Assembly (NCBI RefSeq): GCF_003334255.1
Contig: NZ_QOWU01000071.1
Source of the DNA: Escherichia coli
Lineage (GTDB): Bacteria; Pseudomonadota; Gammaproteobacteria; Enterobacterales; Enterobacteriaceae
Reading direction: 5' to 3' (one strand)
DNA length: 19,170 nt
A model generated the notes under the pieces. It searched no databases and had not been told where the DNA came from. It worked only from the letters and a program-made list of their open reading frames with translations. A program made the position numbers and the translations under genes. This document shows positions 6,457 to 18,579 of the stretch, piece by piece; positions within the stretch are counted from its first letter, which is position 1; each line of letters begins with the position of its first letter.

Positions 6457-7129
6457 ATGGTCTTCTGAAACTTTTTTCAGCCTTCCGGCCCCGGCAAACA
6501 GCCGTCGTTTCTGCCATACATCCTGAATGCCTTATGGCGCATCCTGCCGTTTTCTGACTTTCCGGATCGCGAGGATCCCAAAAGCCACTGCATAACGATC
6601 CGCAATATACCTCGTTTCCACCGCTTTGAAAAGCCGACATGATTTCTCAGGGTTACAGTTGCCCTCTTTAACTCCCCGAAAAAGCGTCGTTTTTTTGAAC
6701 TCTGTCAAAAAAATGAACAATTCCGCAAACGATCTTTTATGCTGTGTTTTTCATCATTTTTAGTAGAAGAGATCGCGTTATTTTTTTAAACGATCTAATC
6801 GTCCACAAATCGCATTTGACTCAGAACAATATACTGCTTTATTTGATGTAACAATCTATTCAACTGCTTATTTGGACTATTGCCACATATGCAACCTTGT
6901 GTAGCATGTTTATCAGCCATTAATCCTGTTTGGGTAATTGGCAGTTTTCGCCCGCCTCGAAACTGTCAAAAAGGCTTACAAGAGTGCACAACGCATGTGC
7001 CTGTCAGAACTGCAGGCCGGGCTGAACGAGGGTCAGCCGCTGTTTCCGACACATGCTTTATGTATTCGCCGTTCACAACAACATCGAAGCCCCCCTGCGG
7101 GGATCGATTTTCGCGGAGCGTTCCGGATT

Positions 7130-7636
7130 TTGAATATCAGTGAATTACATCAACGCAACTGGTATCTGGCACAGTACATTGCTGCCGGTAAAAATCGCGA
7201 ACATCTCTTTTCCTGGCTTTCCGAACAACACGTCCTTCCCTGGACACCCCTGATACTGAAAAAGGTCCGCCGTACGGATAAAGTCTGTGGTTACCGTCGT
7301 CATATACACGCCGTGTTTCCCGGTTACTTCTTCCTGAAAGCAGACCCCGAACGCCACGCTTTCACTCACCTGCGCCGTCACAGTGCCTTTCTGGACTTCG
7401 TGAAAATGGCCGGTGAAATCAAAACCGTCAGGGAGGATATCGTTCAGTCCCTGATGAAAGTGTACCCGGATCCTGCGCTCAATCCGGCAGCCAGGGAGGA
7501 GCTGGATGCTGCCTCCACCCTCTGGCTGACAAAAGCGCGTTACCAGTACCTCCTCCGGCTTGATGCACAGCCTCTGCCGGAGTCGAGGATCGCCCTGCTC
7601 CTGCACCTGGTATCTGATGACGGAGCGTTGACATGA
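7130..7636 (+). CDS. NusG/RfaH-paralog (NGN domain) transcription antitermination-like protein; start codon uncertain
   Basis: NWYLAQY...HAVFPGYFFLKADPE...SAFLDFVKMAG aligns by eye with the RfaH N-terminal domain (WYLLYC...EPLFPNYLFVEFDPE...VSHFVRFG). The ORF is open from 6938 (TTG); 7130 TTG follows a GGAG at 7115-7118. No clear KOW motif in the C-terminal part. Confidence 0.65.
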   Translation: MNISELHQRNWYLAQYIAAGKNREHLFSWLSEQHVLPWTPLILKKVRRTDKVCGYRRHIHAVFPGYFFLKADPERHAFTHLRRHSAFLDFVKMAGEIKTVREDIVQSLMKVYPDPALNPAAREELDAASTLWLTKARYQYLLRLDAQPLPESRIALLLHLVSDDGALT

Positions 7637-7663
7637 AAATTGCTGTCTTCATTTGACGACTTT

Positions 7664-7690
7664 CCCGGCCTTTATGGCCGGGCTTTTTTT
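7664..7690 (+). terminator. Intrinsic terminator T1
   Basis: CCCGGCC-TTTAT-GGCCGGG followed by CTTTTTTT. Confidence 0.55.
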
Positions 7691-7696
7691 CCCCAA

Positions 7697-7752
7697 TGCC
7701 CGGCACCGGTGACACCTGCGTGTACGGAGAGCGGCTGCCGGGCATTTTTTTT
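7697..7752 (+). terminator. Intrinsic terminator T2 (long hairpin with 9-bp closing stem) immediately upstream of the next RBS
   Basis: TGCCCGGCA ... TGCCGGGCA followed by eight T; ends 1 nt before the AGGA RBS of the gene at 7765. Confidence 0.5.
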
Positions 7753-7764
7753 CAGGACATCGTT

Positions 7765-8280
7765 ATGACCATTCAATCCCCGGAAAACCCTGTCATTCAG
7801 TTACTGGAGAATATGCTTGAAGCGCTCTCCACCTCCCCGGACAGCATCAACAATGAACGACGTCGCCGGCGCTTCCTGCTGAACTGGCTTGATTCCGCCC
7901 GACAGATGAGTGAGTTCAGGGGGATGCCTGAAGAGTTCACCGCCCTGCGCAAACTGCTGGCCACCAATACGGACATACCGGTAGAGAACACGCTGAAATC
8001 ACTGCTGGAAAGTGGCCACAACGCAGCACTGTATGACCTGTACCGCTTCCGAGCAGCGCTTGCCACGTGCAGGAGTCTGGGATGGCAGATTGGCACGTGC
8101 GCATGGAATGACCAGTTACTGAGTGAGACACTTTCCCGCGCACAGACCGGGAAACGTCATATCCTGCAGCTGAACAGCACCGGGGACACCTTTTCCACCA
8201 CGGGCAGAATGATCAGACCGGTGGCATTTTCATTAATCCATCCGGCCACCATCAACACGTCTGAGGTTGAAGAGATATGA
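7765..8280 (+). CDS. Hypothetical soluble protein (171 aa)
   Basis: ATG at 7765 with AGGA 8 nt upstream; longer ORF from 7696 rejected because its start lies inside terminator T2. ATGA overlap with the next gene. Confidence 0.6.
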   Translation: MTIQSPENPVIQLLENMLEALSTSPDSINNERRRRRFLLNWLDSARQMSEFRGMPEEFTALRKLLATNTDIPVENTLKSLLESGHNAALYDLYRFRAALATCRSLGWQIGTCAWNDQLLSETLSRAQTGKRHILQLNSTGDTFSTTGRMIRPVAFSLIHPATINTSEVEEI

Positions 8281-8810
8281 CCGGCATTGGTAACTGGATA
8301 GTCAGCGTGCTGATTGGATATGCTGCTGGCCCCCTGTGGGCTGCCACCCACCTGGGAACAAGCCAGGACCGGGGAAGCCGGGCCGCTTACGGTTACATCT
8401 ACCTGATAGACAGCATGATCAGACCGCTGGTGATGGTATTCGGGTTCTTTTTTGCATCGGTCTCCATCGTGGCCGGCGGCACCATTCTGAATGCGTTGTT
8501 TGGCGCGGCTCTGGTTAATGTGCAGGCGGACTCCCTTACGGGGTTATTCAGCATCGCTGGATTTTTGCTGATTTATGCCCGAGTCTGTACCACGCTGGTT
8601 GCGGCCGTTTTTGCGCTTCAGGCTTATCTGCCTGACCATGTGATTAATTTTCTGGGCGGACGTGACGGCGTTAATATGCTGGGGAATATGGCATCTTCGG
8701 TCAAAGATATTATTGCTGGCGGAAATACCAATATGCGCAGAACACCTGGCGTACGTGAAGAAAAACTGAAAAATATTAAAGGAGATGATAAAGACGGAAT
8801 AAAACAATAA
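8277..8810 (+). CDS. Hypothetical integral membrane protein (177 aa)
   Basis: Several hydrophobic segments (IVSVLIGYAAGPLWAA, LVMVFGFFFASVSIVAGGTILNALFGAAL, LFSIAGFLLIYARVCTTLVAAVFAL), hydrophilic lysine-rich tail; coupled to upstream gene. Confidence 0.6.
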   Translation: MTGIGNWIVSVLIGYAAGPLWAATHLGTSQDRGSRAAYGYIYLIDSMIRPLVMVFGFFFASVSIVAGGTILNALFGAALVNVQADSLTGLFSIAGFLLIYARVCTTLVAAVFALQAYLPDHVINFLGGRDGVNMLGNMASSVKDIIAGGNTNMRRTPGVREEKLKNIKGDDKDGIKQ

Positions 8811-8898: not shown

Positions 8899-9546
8899 AT
8901 GAGTACAACAAAAAACAGATATCCTTCCTGGTGGGCATATTATTACCTTGTTCGCAATGCGTATTTCATATTTGGCATACCATGCTTATTATTTTATGCT
9001 TTTTTCGGAACACTAATTGTTCATGATTCAGCCTTATCTCAAACAATGGATTTTGTTTTTGCATATGGATGCTGGGCATTAATAATTATCCCATTACTCT
9101 GGCTATATCTGAGAACCAGAGCGAAGAAAAAGAAAGTCCTGCAGGTTGTTCAGCAGATAAAAGAAAGCAGTCTCTTTGCGCCGACCAGCGATTATGAGCA
9201 ACTGTCATTCTCGAAGAGTTGTTATTTCGGGATCGACATTAAAAACGGCACCATGCTGTATGTGCGTATTTATCCAAACAATGTGATGGATGTGATTGGT
9301 CTGGATATTCACAACTTTACCCGCACGGTTGCTGAGGACGGCAAACTGGAAATCCATACCACCTATGTGAGTCTTCCGATGATCCCACTGGAAATCTCCG
9401 GCATCTCATCAAGGACGCTGGCCAACACCATGCACACCATGGCTGCACGTGGATATGAGTACAAGGAACGTTTCCCGCAGATGATCCGGTATCGGGTTAA
9501 AGAGTGGGAAAAAGTTGCCGGTGTACCTGTTGCAGAAGTGTTTTAA
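8899..9546 (+). CDS. Hypothetical membrane-anchored protein (215 aa); AT-rich
   Basis: GGAGG 8 nt upstream of ATG; two N-terminal hydrophobic helices then a soluble domain; last 35 codons duplicated downstream. Confidence 0.6.
   Translation: MSTTKNRYPSWWAYYYLVRNAYFIFGIPCLLFYAFFGTLIVHDSALSQTMDFVFAYGCWALIIIPLLWLYLRTRAKKKKVLQVVQQIKESSLFAPTSDYEQLSFSKSCYFGIDIKNGTMLYVRIYPNNVMDVIGLDIHNFTRTVAEDGKLEIHTTYVSLPMIPLEISGISSRTLANTMHTMAARGYEYKERFPQMIRYRVKEWEKVAGVPVAEVF
9433..9546 (+). repeat. Direct repeat copy 1 (3' end of the 215-aa gene)
   Basis: About 110 bp near-identical to 9938-10051. Confidence 0.8.
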
Positions 9547-11888: not shown

Positions 11889-13436
11889 TTATTTTTCTGA
11901 TTCAGCATTTCCGGTCAGTACAGGCTCTTCTGGCAAAGACATTACCGGAACGTCACGTTCGCCATTGAATACAGAAACACTTTCGGTGAAACCATTCTGT
12001 AACAAAGAAAAACTTAACGGCAGATTTTTGGTTTGTATCCCTGTGATCCATTGAAAAATCTCGGGAAAACGACGGGCGCTGATATGCACATGATTGAGGC
12101 GGTGCTCAGTAATATCACTTGCCATCATCATGAGAGGCACATCGTATCCCGAACGCAAACCTGGCGCATGATGCACAGGGGTGCTGTCTGAACTGACGGA
12201 TTGCCCATGATCAGAAAAATACAGCATGGCAAAATCATCGCCATGCTCTGTCGTCATGTTATAAATTGCCTGAAGAAACCGATCCAGCTTAAGCAATGTT
12301 GATAAATAACAGGATACTTTATTTCCGAATAATTCCCTGAACGGCTGTGCATCATTAAAAAGTCTGTCACAGGGATTAGGATGGGATCCCAGCATATGAA
12401 TGAAAATCACTTTTGGAGAAGACGAATTAACAGCTTCCCTGACATACTGAAGCATATCTTCATCATCAATGCGACGGGAAGAAGAGTTCCCTTCCTTAAG
12501 AAAATATTTCTTATCCGCACTGGCGGCGATGACAGAAATCAGCGTATCATGTCGCCCTAAAGAGCCCTGATTTGATATCCACCACGTTTCATATCCGGCT
12601 TTTCTGGCAAGCGTAACAATATTATTACCCGGATTACCTGTTTCAGTGTAATCAAGAGTCAGTGTTCTGCTGAGTGAACCTGTCGTATTCGGAGCAGCGG
12701 AGAAATACCCATTAATAAATATACCCGGAGCAGAGTTCAGCCATGGTGTTGTCGGCAAAGGATACCCATAAACAGAAAGATAATCCCGTCTGACACTTTC
12801 ACCAATTACGATAATTATAGTTTTATATTTCTTCTCCACACTCACAATATCCCATGAGTCTTTCTGATTGTTTTTCAGCGATTCATATCGCATCATTTCT
12901 TCTCTGGTTTCAGCTATCCCCGTTATTACATTCGTAACCATACGTTTTGGCCATGCATTTACTGACAATACGATAAAGAACAACAGAAAGATAAATCCCC
13001 GGTGGCTTTTTTCACGCTTACGCCAGAACCAGAATGTAAAAGCAGCAATGACCAGTGAAACAATAAAATAAAAAACAGGTATGCCTGTGATAAATTCACC
13101 TGCCTCATTTATATTTGTCTGCATTACAGACGCAATAAAACTGTTGTTTATTTTTCCGTAAATCATTCCAACCGGAGCATAGAATGCACTTAACAAAAGA
13201 AAGATACAGACACACGTCGCTGAAATAACATTCCGCCGCCCCAACGACATCATCAGGAACAATATAAGTACATTCCCTGTGGCGTTTTTCACTGTATATC
13301 CGCAGCACCATGTAACAAGTACAGAAAACAACAGATAAATCAGTGACTCTTTACACCACAACATAAAATAAAACTGTTTTGCCATCTCAAAAGCACATTT
13401 GGATTTTTCTTTAATACGAGACACGCCAGTCATTTT
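11889..13436 (-). CDS. Phosphoethanolamine-transferase-like membrane enzyme (sulfatase/alkaline-phosphatase superfamily, EptA/MCR/OpgE-like); start uncertain
   Basis: N-terminal hydrophobic helices followed by a catalytic domain with IIIVIGESVRRDYLSVYGYP, KVIFIHMLGSHPNP and AMLYFSDHGQS, resembling the VVGETARADHVSFNGY / MLHQMGNHGP / MLYVSDHGES blocks of MCR/EptA. AT-rich. ORF open to 13445 (TTG); first ATG at 13436. Confidence 0.75.
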   Translation of the reverse strand, partial: KMTGVSRIKEKSKCAFEMAKQFYFMLWCKESLIYLLFSVLVTWCCGYTVKNATGNVLILFLMMSLGRRNVISATCVCIFLLLSAFYAPVGMIYGKINNSFIASVMQTNINEAGEFITGIPVFYFIVSLVIAAFTFWFWRKREKSHRGFIFLLFFIVLSVNAWPKRMVTNVITGIAETREEMMRYESLKNNQKDSWDIVSVEKKYKTIIIVIGESVRRDYLSVYGYPLPTTPWLNSAPGIFINGYFSAAPNTTGSLSRTLTLDYTETGNPGNNIVTLARKAGYETWWISNQGSLGRHDTLISVIAASADKKYFLKEGNSSSRRIDDEDMLQYVREAVNSSSPKVIFIHMLGSHPNPCDRLFNDAQPFRELFGNKVSCYLSTLLKLDRFLQAIYNMTTEHGDDFAMLYFSDHGQSVSSDSTPVHHAPGLRSGYDVPLMMMASDITEHRLNHVHISARRFPEIFQWITGIQTKNLPLSFSLLQNGFTESVSVFNGERDVPVMSLPEEPVLTGNAESEK

Positions 13437-13591
13437 CCTGTACAAAAACAGACAATCATTTCAACGCATGGATATTTATATGAAACAGCTCACAAAAATA
13501 CCCTGCTCTGTCTAGCAAGATTACATATTATCAGGTTTTGTGTTTACAGCAACTGCTCCCCGGACCAGATTATTCGCATAACCCGATGAAT

Positions 13592-13612
13592 GACTCATCA
13601 TTATGATGAGTC
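13592..13612. other. Perfect hairpin GACTCATCA-TTA-TGATGAGTC just downstream of the 151-aa gene
   Basis: Seen directly; possible terminator or regulatory element. Confidence 0.35.
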
Positions 13613-13623
13613 TCAGGATTCAT

Positions 13624-14079
13624 TTAGTTAACAAAAATACTTCTTGCCTTCCCGGAAAGGCAAACATACGAAAGAGAAAGCATGGCTATAATAATATCAA
13701 TCAAAATATGCTCAATCTTTCCTGTTGTCATACATTCAGCACCGACAACATAAAGACAATAAACAAAAGTGACAGCATGGTGTGATATATAAAGAATATA
13801 AATGCACAGAAGTAATTTTCCGACGACTCTTTTCCGTTTAAAGAAAGAATAAATGAAGAACAAGCATAAAGCCGCCAGAAAAAGAAAGGTAGCTATGGAG
13901 ATTATAAAATACTCCATCACCTGTGAATTCTCATCCAGAGATGTGTACAGCGAATAATATGTGGCTGTGAGATTAAGTCCCGTTATCAATATATAAACAA
14001 CTGATAATAGTATAATATAAAGAATCAGACCAAATCTGGTTTTCTGTGCTCTGGTTAATACTTCTGATTTATCTCGCAT
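13624..14079 (-). CDS. Hypothetical integral membrane protein (151 aa), AT-rich
   Basis: About four hydrophobic segments; no family recognised; upstream of the transferase-like gene on the same strand. Confidence 0.5.
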   Translation of the reverse strand: MRDKSEVLTRAQKTRFGLILYIILLSVVYILITGLNLTATYYSLYTSLDENSQVMEYFIISIATFLFLAALCLFFIYSFFKRKRVVGKLLLCIYILYISHHAVTFVYCLYVVGAECMTTGKIEHILIDIIIAMLSLSYVCLSGKARSIFVN

Positions 14080-14166
14080 AAAATATCCTGTCTGTAATCT
14101 GTCCCGGTAAACAATGGTAAACGTCAGAATCAGTGCGAATACGGTAACAAAGATTCCTCCTGTGCT

Positions 14167-14847
14167 TTAAAGTGTGTAGGCAGAAACCAGTCTGGTGGTT
14201 CCGGTCAGGGTGTCTGATACCTCAACTTCCCGGGTGACTATCACCATACCTGACTGACGCAGTCTCTGCACATCAGCTGCAATTCGCTGAGTTCCCGGCC
14301 AGAACAGACCATCCAGCGCGGTGACAATTAACCCGCTTTCCAGCGCCAGTTTCAGCCGTGCTGTCGGGGCTTTAACCTGCCCGGCGATATCAGTGAAACA
14401 ACGCGTCGTCATGCCATAGCTGTCCACCCGCCGTATTCGCGTCGCAAGACTGTAGCTGAAGCAATCCGGCACGCCGGATAAGTCATTCTGCAGACTGTAT
14501 ACACATCCCCGCTGCCGCCCATTGAACAGGACTTTTTTCTGGCTGAGCAGCCATTCCCGCCGCAGGCTGTCAATCATCTGCGGGGTCCGCGTTAACAGCA
14601 GACGAAACGGCAGCTCAAAACTGGTCACATAATCAACATTAAGTAAGGCTGTCCGCAGCCGTTCCCTGGCACCTGCTCCGGTATCACGGCATTCACGCAT
14701 GACATCTTCCCACTGGCGCATCAGTTGCGGAGACTTATGCCTGGCCCTGAACTGATATTTCTCAATCTGATAATCAATATATTCCTGCATACCGTCACCG
14801 GATATCTGTTGCCGTCTCATCACGGATATCAGCGTACTGGAATTCAT
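14167..14847 (-). CDS. Hypothetical protein (226 aa)
   Basis: Long ORF with GC content above its neighbours; divergent from the nuclease gene. No family recognised. Confidence 0.55.
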   Translation of the reverse strand: MNSSTLISVMRRQQISGDGMQEYIDYQIEKYQFRARHKSPQLMRQWEDVMRECRDTGAGARERLRTALLNVDYVTSFELPFRLLLTRTPQMIDSLRREWLLSQKKVLFNGRQRGCVYSLQNDLSGVPDCFSYSLATRIRRVDSYGMTTRCFTDIAGQVKAPTARLKLALESGLIVTALDGLFWPGTQRIAADVQRLRQSGMVIVTREVEVSDTLTGTTRLVSAYTL

Positions 14848-14950
14848 GCCCTGCCTGAAGTATCACACTGCAAATAATAAACACGCCTGAGCATTATTAT
14901 TTCGCAATATTAATTGCACCTGTTTTCATAAATAAAAAGGACAAGATAAA

Positions 14951-15436
14951 ATGATAAAATATATATTCGCACTCACACTTCTGCTTTCCGGTTCTGTCTG
15001 TGCCGATCAAATTCAGGGACACGTTATTCGTGTGCTGGACGGTGATACTCTGGAGATATTACAGGCCCGGCATCCCGTCAGAATTCGTCTTGTTAATATT
15101 GATGCGCCGGAAAAGAAACAGCCTTTTGGACGCTGGTCAATGAATCAACTTAAAAGCCTTGTGGCAAATACACCCGTAACCGTGACATACACACAGACAG
15201 ACCGCTACGGGCGTATTCCGGGACGGGTATATACCGAAAACGGTATGGAAGTTAACCGCTGGCTGGTACAGCATGGTGCAGCCTGGGTATATCCTGATTT
15301 CAATACAGATTACACCCTGCCGGCATACCAGAGAGAAGCCAGAACAATGAAACGGGGTCTGTGGGCAGACAAAAAACCTGTTCCACCATGGCTGTGGCGA
15401 AAAGAAAATAAAAACAACCACAATAATTATAAATAA
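14951..15436 (+). CDS. Secreted thermonuclease (staphylococcal-nuclease-like)
   Basis: Signal peptide MIKYIFALTLLLSGSVCA; SNase motifs RLVNIDAPE and DRYGR; AAGGA RBS 8 nt upstream. Confidence 0.85.
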   Translation: MIKYIFALTLLLSGSVCADQIQGHVIRVLDGDTLEILQARHPVRIRLVNIDAPEKKQPFGRWSMNQLKSLVANTPVTVTYTQTDRYGRIPGRVYTENGMEVNRWLVQHGAAWVYPDFNTDYTLPAYQREARTMKRGLWADKKPVPPWLWRKENKNNHNNYK

Positions 15437-16104
15437 GATATCTCACAGGAATATATTTCCTGCCGTTTTATTTCCCCTGTTAGTCTCCAGCGGGAAATAA
15501 CATCCAGAAGTTACACTGATATGAATAATAAACCTGTTCAATGTGTCCGTCACTAAAGTGAACTCAGCCCCTTATGGAAAATATTGTAAATGATGGATGA
15601 ATGCTGAATACATTTCCCGGGGAGTGGCAGAAACAGATAAGTTGATGTCTGACTCAGAAGAAAATACGCCTGTAGCGCCCTGCATTTCATAACATTTCTG
15701 TTACAGCAACAACGAAAGCCGACAGTAATGCCGGGCTTTTACGTCCACATGCATATTCCACTTATCCGGAATTGTGACACAGCACCTGAATACAGGATTG
15801 ATCACCGGTGCCCACAAATGGCACATTTTCAGTAAGATTCCGAATGTTACATTACCCCGTCATGTGTGACGCAGTTGTCACCGGGAAAGAAACAGAAAGC
15901 ACATGAAAAACATAAAAACTCACACAGGACTCCTTATCCACAAAGAACAAACACGACGCGTTCGTCTTCATGAAACACCGGCCGCCTGGTGCCTCACACA
16001 CCGGGAATGCTACAGCAAAACAACCGGTCGCCGCTGCGGCAGCCCTGACAGTCTCAGCAGGCTGATTCTGAGCAGCATTCAGCCCATAGAATGAGATAAC
16101 CCGT

Positions 16105-16704: not shown

Positions 16705-17028
16705 ATGGCATACCATCCCCCGGATGTCACACGGCATTATCCTTATCTGCGCCGGATGTCCTGGGCGCAGATAACGGCAGCAGCTGAAGATGCGGAAATA
16801 CATCATGATTATGCCCGGGCATTAATATTGTGGCAGCATGCATATCATGCTGCCACGTTGACCATTAACAAAAACCTGGCAACCGCTAAAATCCACTTCT
16901 GTGCTAAACGCCTTCAGATACGTGAACAAATGAGCAGGATAATCCGGAATACTGGCACAGACGAAATACTCTTCCGTCTGAGTAAACACCATCATTTATA
17001 TGAGAAAAAGAAAACAAAAGAGGGGTGA
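16705..17028 (+). CDS. Small helical protein (107 aa), possibly ANR-like (AraC negative regulator family); tentative
   Basis: AGGAG RBS 8 nt upstream; the ...YARALILWQHAYHAA...FCAKRL... pattern resembles ANR-family proteins as I recall them. Not verified. Confidence 0.45.
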   Translation: MAYHPPDVTRHYPYLRRMSWAQITAAAEDAEIHHDYARALILWQHAYHAATLTINKNLATAKIHFCAKRLQIREQMSRIIRNTGTDEILFRLSKHHHLYEKKKTKEG

Positions 17029-17534: not shown

Positions 17535-17621
17535 GTCAGTTATAGACAGTTATCTTCCGGTCAGGGCTACCAAGTTCGATCCGGAATCGTAAAAAAACCG
17601 GCCTCACCAGTCGGTTTTTTT
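17535..17621 (+). ncRNA. Candidate antitoxin small RNA, copy A
   Basis: Sigma70-like promoter TTGCAG-17 nt-TATTAT (17500-17528); intrinsic terminator ACCGGC-CTCACCA-GTCGGT plus seven T (17597-17621). 5' region 17535-17551 is a direct repeat of 17348-17364, hence complementary to the peptide mRNA leader. Confidence 0.4.
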
Positions 17622-17878
17622 ACATCTGTATATATCTGCTCCGGACTGCGCCCTGAGTCTCCCGTTGAAAATTGCCTTTTGAATTTTACGAAATACGGCA
17701 AATGGTGGATGGATGTCGAATATATTTCCAGGGGAGTTCCGGGGAAAAGCCGGCTCATGTTTGACTCACGGGAACAGACGCTGGAAGTGCAGAAAGATTT
17801 TCGATTTTTAACCTGAGCATATTTTGTTAAAGGGCAGAAGACGGTGACCCTCTGCCCTTAAGTACGTTTCCGGGATTA

Positions 17879-18279: not shown

Positions 18280-18366
18280 GTTAGTTGAAAAGAGACTTCC
18301 TCCGGGCCAGAGCCACCAACTCTCCCTGGGATCGCAAAAAAGCCGGCCTCACCAGTCGGCTTTTTT
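18280..18366 (+). ncRNA. Candidate antitoxin small RNA, copy B
   Basis: Promoter-like TTGCGA-17 nt-TATTCT (18245-18273); terminator GCCGGC-CTCACCA-GTCGGC plus T-run (18341-18366). 18286-18305 is a direct repeat of 18052-18071 in the copy-B peptide leader. Confidence 0.35.
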
Positions 18367-18579
18367 GTGCCTGTCTCTCACCACCTTCTGCTGTTCCTGT
18401 GAAAATGCCCTGCTGAATTCATCCCTGCCCGGTCATTACCGGCGATTGTTCGTATTCATTCCACTCAGCCTCATCACGAAATTAATCCATTTATCTATGG
18501 AGGAATCCCCGTGTCTTACCAACAGACGTCTGCCAGTGAAGCACCAACAGAGATTTGGTATATCGTCGGTATCATATGC

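Follow-up and report, generated by a model that had tools for sequence, protein, structure and literature searches.

The locus analysed here lies within a 19,170-nt stretch of Escherichia coli DNA (the window; contig NZ_QOWU01000071.1) and consists of two accessory genes that point away from each other, starting at 14790 on the minus strand and at 14951 on the plus strand, which confirms the divergent arrangement proposed earlier. Between them lies an AT-rich spacer that carries candidate promoters for both genes and two inverted repeats, one of 9 bp and one of 5 bp (Table 1). The window belongs to an I-complex plasmid of E. coli of the IncK2/Z type: its 1.4 kb surrounding the 9-bp repeat are 100% identical to IncK2/Z E. 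coli plasmids, e.g., pDETEC45 (NZ_CP116070.1) and pRHB13-C14_3 (CP055726.1), and 504 plasmid records match the same query, with 482 covering at least 80% of both genes. Rfam matches in the window comprise a repZ pseudoknot, sok, and two AgrB RNAs; the window also encodes a transposase and a resolvase of the Tn3 family, a RepA family initiator of the IncFII type, a NusG/RfaH-like protein, a C-terminal remnant of traY, and excA. The annotated order runs from excA through DUF1778/GNAT, Hok/Gef, phosphoethanolamine transferase and DUF2569 genes to the divergent pair (a 'DNA-binding protein' on the minus and a thermonuclease on the plus strand), followed by hypothetical genes and dqlB. The conjugative relative pDV10 carries the same divergent pair between pnd and trbA.

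Table 1 Features of the divergent gene pair and its spacer (positions within the window).
Feature	Position	Strand	Description
ECs1377-family gene, 207 aa	14167-14790	-	C-terminal winged helix-turn-helix (wHTH); NF052300
Intergenic spacer	14791-14950	.	160 bp, GC 0.39
GGTGA Shine-Dalgarno	14795-14799	-	spaced 4 nt from the ATG at 14790; part of the AACAGATATC(C/T)GGTG block
Candidate leftward promoter of the wHTH gene	14831-14859	-	TTCA(C/G)G-17-TA(C/G)GCT, weak sigma-70-like
9-bp repeat, left arm	14872-14880	+	AAATAATAA; repeat finder
9-bp repeat, right arm	14894-14902	+	TTATTATTT; repeat finder
GCAAT-ATTA-ATTGC	14904-14908 (GCAAT), 14913-14917 (ATTGC)	.	4-nt gap
Candidate nuclease -10	14905-14910	+	CAATAT, or TAATAT in types B and C; ATG ~40 nt further 3′
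Minus-strand -10 candidate	14912-14907	-	TAATAT; position-weight-matrix scan
AGGA Shine-Dalgarno	14938-14941	+	9 nt 5′ of the nuclease ATG; invariant in relatives
SNase (thermonuclease) family gene, 161 aa	14951-15436	+	PF00565 and signal-peptide-like N-terminus

At 6938-8810, a 177-aa ORF with a match to DotA/TraY in the C-terminal end alone lies between the NusG/RfaH-like gene and excA; deletion seems to have removed most of the I-type transfer region, consistent with the typing of identical plasmids as 'mobilizable', not conjugative. The phosphoethanolamine-transferase-like gene within 11889-14079 scored below all NCBIfam cut-offs, with CptA as its best match. Together with the DUF2569 gene it is AT-rich (GC 0.33-0.39 over 13000-14199), and since pDV10 has the divergent pair without them, these two genes look like cargo acquired separately. 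The left-hand gene of the pair has a GC content of ~0.56, unlike its AT-rich neighbours. On the far side of the pair, the two copies of the AgrB antisense RNA (17536-17623 and 18281-18368; RF02891; 43.5 and 41 bits) fall in a stretch for which an identical plasmid record has two DinQ-like dqlB type I toxin genes annotated. Published primers and recombination arms found no match to the window or the compared loci (pCT sequence was not among them) within five mismatches, and the candidate to which they belong was rejected on this ground.

The right-hand gene encodes an SNase-family protein, with PF00565 matched at E 8.8e-23 over model positions 1-107 of 107, i.e., the full domain. Its N-terminus (MIKYIFALTLLLSGSVCA|DQ) is signal-peptide-like by eye, in keeping with the secreted nuclease named in the initial annotation. 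Against the EcnA/NucI nuclease equivalogs the protein scored below the cut-offs (NF047969, 47.3 vs 180 bits; NF047694, 44.0 vs 250 bits). In the matching records no gene is annotated in the ~670 bp 3′ of the nuclease gene (15437-16104), where CAGGAA-N5-TTCCTG hairpins followed by a T-rich run (~15447-15475) resemble the terminator of that gene.

Nuclease genes on other plasmids sit in different surroundings. The nuc gene of the IncI1 plasmids R64 and pESBL, which codes for an EDTA-resistant nuclease, is part of the tra operon, with traK and sogL on either side, and neither plasmid needs it for transfer (PMC4288162). Compared by position, the present gene is likewise borne on an I-complex plasmid, but it belongs to a separate divergent pair between pnd and trbA. 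With an SNase gene of IncF plasmids (pO157, pHUSEC41-2), annotated as a thermonuclease family protein, it shares ~72-74% nucleotide identity over ~140 nt; unlike the window's gene, it is located behind finO and an ANR-family gene, all in one orientation, on the IncF plasmids, with no ECs1377-family partner. The DNA 5′ of the IncF gene bears no relation to the window's spacer and carries a different, perfect TGTGA-N6-TCACA palindrome. In pO157 this is TTTTGTGA-TTAATT-TCACAAAA (positions 1650-1671 of the fetched locus L018), which lies 5′ of the SNase gene, has no counterpart in the window's spacer, and fits the CRP-site consensus, TGTGA-N6-TCACA. The ANR-family gene (ANR, AraC negative regulator) is annotated directly 5′ of the IncF SNase gene (L018/L019:1293-1505), and in the window a 107-aa ORF located 1.3 kb 3′ of the nuclease gene (16705-17028) gave a sub-threshold ANR match (28.2 vs 32 bits); an ANR-like ORF near an SNase gene is a neighbourhood that recurs in the window and on IncF plasmids.

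The left-hand gene matched the ECs1377 family of NCBIfam (NF052300) with 288.6 bits against a cut-off of 190 and over profile positions 3-190 of 190. PF14090 (HTH_39) matched weakly at residues 155-207 (E 0.034), and the AF2 model of the 207-aa protein was confident only for a C-terminal helix/strand domain at residues ~120-207. The protein had no sequence match in the PDB at E ≤ 10, a Foldseek search against the PDB returned as its best hit a generic TFIIE/TFE winged helix that was not significant (E 0.36), the PHROGs match was to a family of unknown function, and PADLOC gave no match.

The initial annotation had described this gene as 226 aa long and the intergenic region as 103 bp, figures that we revise. 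The PGAP start at 14790 gives 624 bp, or 207 aa, and homologues from Kosakonia, Enterobacter, Rahnella, Kluyvera, Serratia, Citrobacter, and E. coli measure 207-213 aa and all start with M-x-x-x-IDYQIEKY. Between the two alternative starts (14847 and 14790), related plasmids differ by a 1-nt indel and do not contain the upstream ATG, and in-frame stops precede the 14790 start in relatives ('...PVG(stop)SLCLGKQQISGGDMQER' and 'MNSSRLIFMMI(stop)(stop)QISGDSMQEH'). The ORF to 14847 is hence an over-extension, the first 57 nt of which (14791-14847) are non-coding. With the true start at 14790, the spacer extends over 160 bp; its GC content is 0.34-0.39, vs 0.48 for the window. The reassigned 57 nt hold the best-conserved leftward promoter candidate of the locus. 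Two CGGATATC direct repeats (14799-14806 and 14823-14830) flank the predicted transcription start and leader of the left-hand gene and could represent an autoregulatory site. Within the 5′ end of that gene, CAATCTGATAATCAATATA (14771-14789) agrees at ~13 of 19 positions with the Fur-box consensus; the stretch is coding, and the resemblance is probably coincidental.

We aligned the spacers of nine plasmids, which represent three haplotypes: A (that of the window), B, and C. The invariant or nearly invariant blocks were AACAGATATC(C/T)GGTG (minus strand), which directly precedes the start at 14790, AATAT(T/A)AA, AGC(G/C)TAC and CGTGAAG with no indel between them, and AATAA..AGGA before the nuclease ATG; the ribosome-binding sites of both genes (GGTGA and AGGA) were conserved. 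Divergent genes with ribosome-binding sites around an AT-rich spacer are the arrangement of a sigma-70 divergent promoter region, and since the spacer must hold the promoters of both genes, the earlier term 'divergent promoter region' is right in the generic sense, while its left boundary moves to 14791.

For the left-hand gene, the candidate promoter pairs TTCAGG (14859-14854; TTCACG in seven other aligned plasmids from all three haplotypes) as -35 box with TACGCT (14836-14831; TAGGCT in types B and C) as -10 box. A position-weight-matrix scan with manually entered hexamer frequencies recovered this pair from each of the three haplotypes (scores 5.9-6.5). The candidate falls within what had been taken for the N-terminal coding part of the 226-aa ORF and would imply a start at ~14824 and a leader of ~34 nt. 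For the nuclease gene, the rightward YAATAT is the only conserved -10-like box, with no recognisable -35; a consensus promoter scan returned only sites that overlap the nuclease ATG, and which for this reason cannot be its promoter. The invariant AATAT(T/A)AA block holds two -10 candidates, CAATAT on the plus and TAATAT on the minus strand. The conserved promoter candidates agree with the consensus at only 7-8 of 12 positions. The leftward promoter candidate, the YAATAT box, and the ribosome-binding sites make up the conserved part of the spacer and are probably functional. Inspection of the spacer by eye for CRP- or Fur-type sites revealed only a TCACA half-site at 14863-14867 and, in relatives, a GTGA-N4-TCAC symmetry with the wrong spacing.

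The inverted repeats that had drawn attention to the locus are present as claimed. The interval 14848-14950, which opens with GCCCTGCCTGAAGTATCACACTGCAAATAATAAACACGCCTGAGCATTATTATTTCGCAATATTAATTGCACC, contains a 9-bp repeat whose arms are complementary at nine of nine positions (100%; repeat finder) across a gap of 13 nt, thereby forming dyad-symmetric half-sites such as occur in palindromic operators, as well as the GCAAT...ATTGC element. Further out, G14870-C14905 and C14871-G14904 can pair as well, provided that C14903 bulges out. We compared the repeat with 2000 dinucleotide-preserving shuffles, scoring perfect inverted repeats of at least 9 bp with a loop of 3-40 nt. Such repeats arose in 1.65% of the shuffles of the 103-bp interval and in 2.0% of those of the 160-bp spacer, and were found in 29 of 382 overlapping 103-bp tiles of the window; the 9-bp repeat is therefore marginally unusual for one region and unremarkable over a 19-kb scan. 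The GCAAT/ATTGC repeat is trivial, given that a 5-bp inverted repeat is present in ~98% of dinucleotide shuffles. Exact copies of AAATAATAA also occur at 8986 and 11886, neither with a partner arm, and with up to one mismatch the motif has 20 matches in the window vs 6.2. We considered a regulon of AAATAATAA motifs and rejected it: the apparent enrichment reflects AT-rich patches of the window and no organised motif.

Conservation of the repeat was assessed with a 61-nt probe across it, which matched 319 type-A records: five at 99% identity or more, one at 95-99%, 140 at ~90%, and 173 at ~88%. The perfect 9-bp repeat occurs in six of these 319 plasmids (~2%); among the fetched loci, it was seen in the window group and plasmid 2013C-3033 only. 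In sampled members of the ~90% and ~88% classes, which together make up 313 of the 319, GCC-A8/9-CAC replaces GCAAATAATAAACAC (that is, GCC-A8/9 stands for GCAAATAATAA), and the resulting poly-A left arm pairs with the right arm at six to seven of nine positions; pDV10 and p5312.29 exemplify this common allele. The right arm (TTATTATTT) is kept within type A, partly in type C, and absent from type B. In type B (115 records) an A5...T5 symmetry is all that is found, and in type C seven of 11 pairs of the repeat. GCAAT/ATTGC fares similarly: type B has GTAAT...ACGTC in its place, and type C has ATAAT...ACGCC. Its AATAT(T/A)AA core (14906-14913) is invariant in nine of nine aligned plasmids, and the outer GC/GC is not kept. 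All changes to the repeat in the aligned spacers are one-sided, with no compensatory covariation, and across the orthologous loci we found neither conservation of the half-sites nor their covariation with the putative regulator.

Between the window's sub-lineage and the common type-A allele, the differences cluster within ~25 nt. Outgroup comparison marks G14885 and G14891 as derived; each of them adds a G-C pair within the loop. The left arm owes its full complementarity to two T's, the direction of this change being ambiguous. With two such sequences among the fetched loci, the changes of the sub-lineage could stem from drift, a template-switch event, or weak local selection. That G14885 and G14891 both add complementarity to the hairpin could speak for local selection for symmetry rather than drift. 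At the position equivalent to 14872-14881, the poly-A left arm of most related plasmids is A8 in some and A9 in others, next to a C indel, although the spacers are nearly identical in other respects, which suggests slippage upstream of the nuclease promoter.

One way to read the repeat is as an operator, with a dimer of the winged-helix protein binding both 9-bp arms, repressing the nuclease promoter, and autoregulating its own gene—a reading that we consider quite improbable. In it, the arm centres, 22 bp (~two helical turns) apart, would have the predicted nuclease -35 between them. One of the two divergent genes does encode a DNA-binding-type domain (the weak PF14090 match and the confidently modelled C-terminal domain), the repeat would flank or straddle the -35 position inferred from the predicted promoters, the gene pair is inherited together in ~480 plasmids, and the two derived changes of the window's sub-lineage raise the symmetry. 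However, a winged helix that has remained nearly unchanged ought to have retained its operator, which is what disfavours this reading: the C-terminal winged-helix regions of the window and of the commonest variant (P0003) differ at two positions, and yet the arms are not kept in 98% of type A nor in types B and C, and have changed on one side without compensation. The arms are, moreover, composed of A/T only and would offer little specificity, and searches of the PDB, PHROGs, Foldseek, and the literature under the name 'ECs1377', which led to a single genome-hybridisation paper, returned no characterised relative of the winged-helix protein.

Homologues outside the plasmid module add to this argument. 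In an E. coli island, a chromosomal ECs1377-family gene is found among AlpA, Hha, and DUF7828 genes, and in Kosakonia the family member lies between hut and gtr genes, in both cases without a nuclease neighbour; judging by these contexts, the pairing of the wHTH gene with the nuclease gene is specific to the present plasmid module. The DNA upstream of the E. coli island and Kosakonia homologues showed no obvious similarity to the spacer by eye. The classical arrangement for comparison is tetR-tetA of Tn10, in which regulator and target are transcribed from divergent promoters with palindromic operators. The present locus resembles this type in having divergent genes, one of them of the helix-turn-helix type, around a short AT-rich spacer with dyad symmetry. 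Unlike there, where half-sites are conserved and overlap defined -35 and -10 boxes, the candidate site here is perfect in six of 319 plasmids, missing from other haplotypes, of A/T only, and split by a 13-nt gap. The suggestion that the repeats mark shared regulation of the pair is therefore not supported, in view of the rarity of the perfect repeat, the lack of conservation of GCAAT/ATTGC, the near-unchanged winged helix, and the missing chromosomal nuclease neighbour, though the repeat might have a lineage-specific role.

We also asked what the repeat might do in RNA. It is no intrinsic terminator: no terminator-like site was detected in 14500-15300, the stem is all A-T, and both genes point away from it. 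Rfam 15 families gave no match in 14600-15200 at E ≤ 1, the window-wide hits lying elsewhere. The whole spacer folded no better than its shuffles (plus strand, z +0.58; minus strand, z -0.48), and the plus-strand hairpin is weak (-7 kcal/mol). On the minus strand, however, the segment 14864-14910 would form a hairpin of -15.1 kcal/mol (z -4.6, mononucleotide shuffles), with weaker versions in other type-A (z -1.75 to -2.2) and type-C spacers (z -1.8). Such a stem-loop could be imagined at the 5′ end of a long leftward leader of the wHTH mRNA, where it would affect stability or translation, and TAATAT (14912-14907) offers a minus-strand -10 candidate from which that leader might start. We give this scenario very little credence. 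Since the hairpin base already lies partly within this box, transcription initiated there would begin near 14900 and leave out the 5′ arm; there is no promoter candidate further right than this box, and the better-conserved leftward candidate lies downstream of the hairpin. Type B, besides, is devoid of the hairpin (z ~0).

From these comparisons, we take the repeat to be a lineage-specific quasi-palindrome that does not qualify as a conserved operator, a terminator, or a known RNA element, and we find it fairly likely that the locus is an ordinary AT-rich divergent promoter region which happens to contain it. The spacer would accommodate the back-to-back promoters of two accessory genes placed between pnd and trbA of I-complex plasmids. 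Leftward, the weak sigma-70-like promoter would drive the wHTH gene via a short leader with its GGTGA site; rightward, the YAATAT box, with a start predicted at ~14917 and followed by the AGGA site, would serve the nuclease gene. The quasi-palindrome would then be composed of an A-rich tract 5′ of the nuclease -35 position and of the T-rich -35/-10 spacer, and it would have taken a few point changes to perfect it in a small sub-lineage.

Two kinds of known element can be compared with this composition. A-tract or UP-element-like sequences lie 5′ of weak sigma-70 promoters, and the AAATAATAAA of the window (A8-A9 in most relatives) is positioned in the same manner, directly 5′ of the would-be nuclease -35, where it may act as a UP-like element for the nuclease promoter. 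In contrast to UP-element A-tracts, this one differs between plasmids in both length and sequence, and the start to which it is referred is a predicted one. Quasi-palindromes, in turn, are known in E. coli as sites of template-switch mutation. The present repeat, imperfect in most relatives and perfected in one sub-lineage by clustered substitutions that raise complementarity, resembles them; it departs from them in that its loop is still imperfect and has also changed, and only the two G changes are polarised. A template-switch mechanism for the repeat is accordingly offered as conjecture.

Another reading would deny the repeat any role, seeing in it a product of chance or of template switching ('quasi-palindrome correction') within an AT-rich spacer that serves mainly as an H-NS-type silencing patch over acquired genes. 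The marginal repeat statistics, the abundance of AAATAATAA-like motifs in the AT-rich patches of the window (the 20 matches mentioned above), the clustering of differences from the common allele within ~25 nt of the hairpin, and the low GC content of the spacer agree with it, and TCGCAATATT may resemble the H-NS motif. We nevertheless hold it to be unlikely as a separate account: template switching alone would not explain the loop changes, and the proposal largely overlaps the divergent promoter region described above, from which it differs only in denying the UP-like contribution.

For the annotation of these plasmids, the gain is a left-hand gene of 207 instead of 226 aa and a spacer of 160 bp, and the sequence by itself gives no ground for treating the repeat as a regulatory site. 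What would be at stake can nonetheless be stated for the boldest reading, which we regard as very improbable, namely that the winged-helix protein of the ECs1377 family binds the A/T-rich dyad as a repressor dedicated to the secreted nuclease and that the window's sub-lineage has evolved a perfected operator. Were it true, control of the nuclease would be tighter or otherwise altered in this sub-lineage, and the ECs1377 family—widespread on chromosomes and plasmids of the Enterobacterales—would gain its first function and its first DNA target. It would also provide a handle on the control of a nuclease gene that is common on enterobacterial plasmids, a matter of modest, specialist interest.
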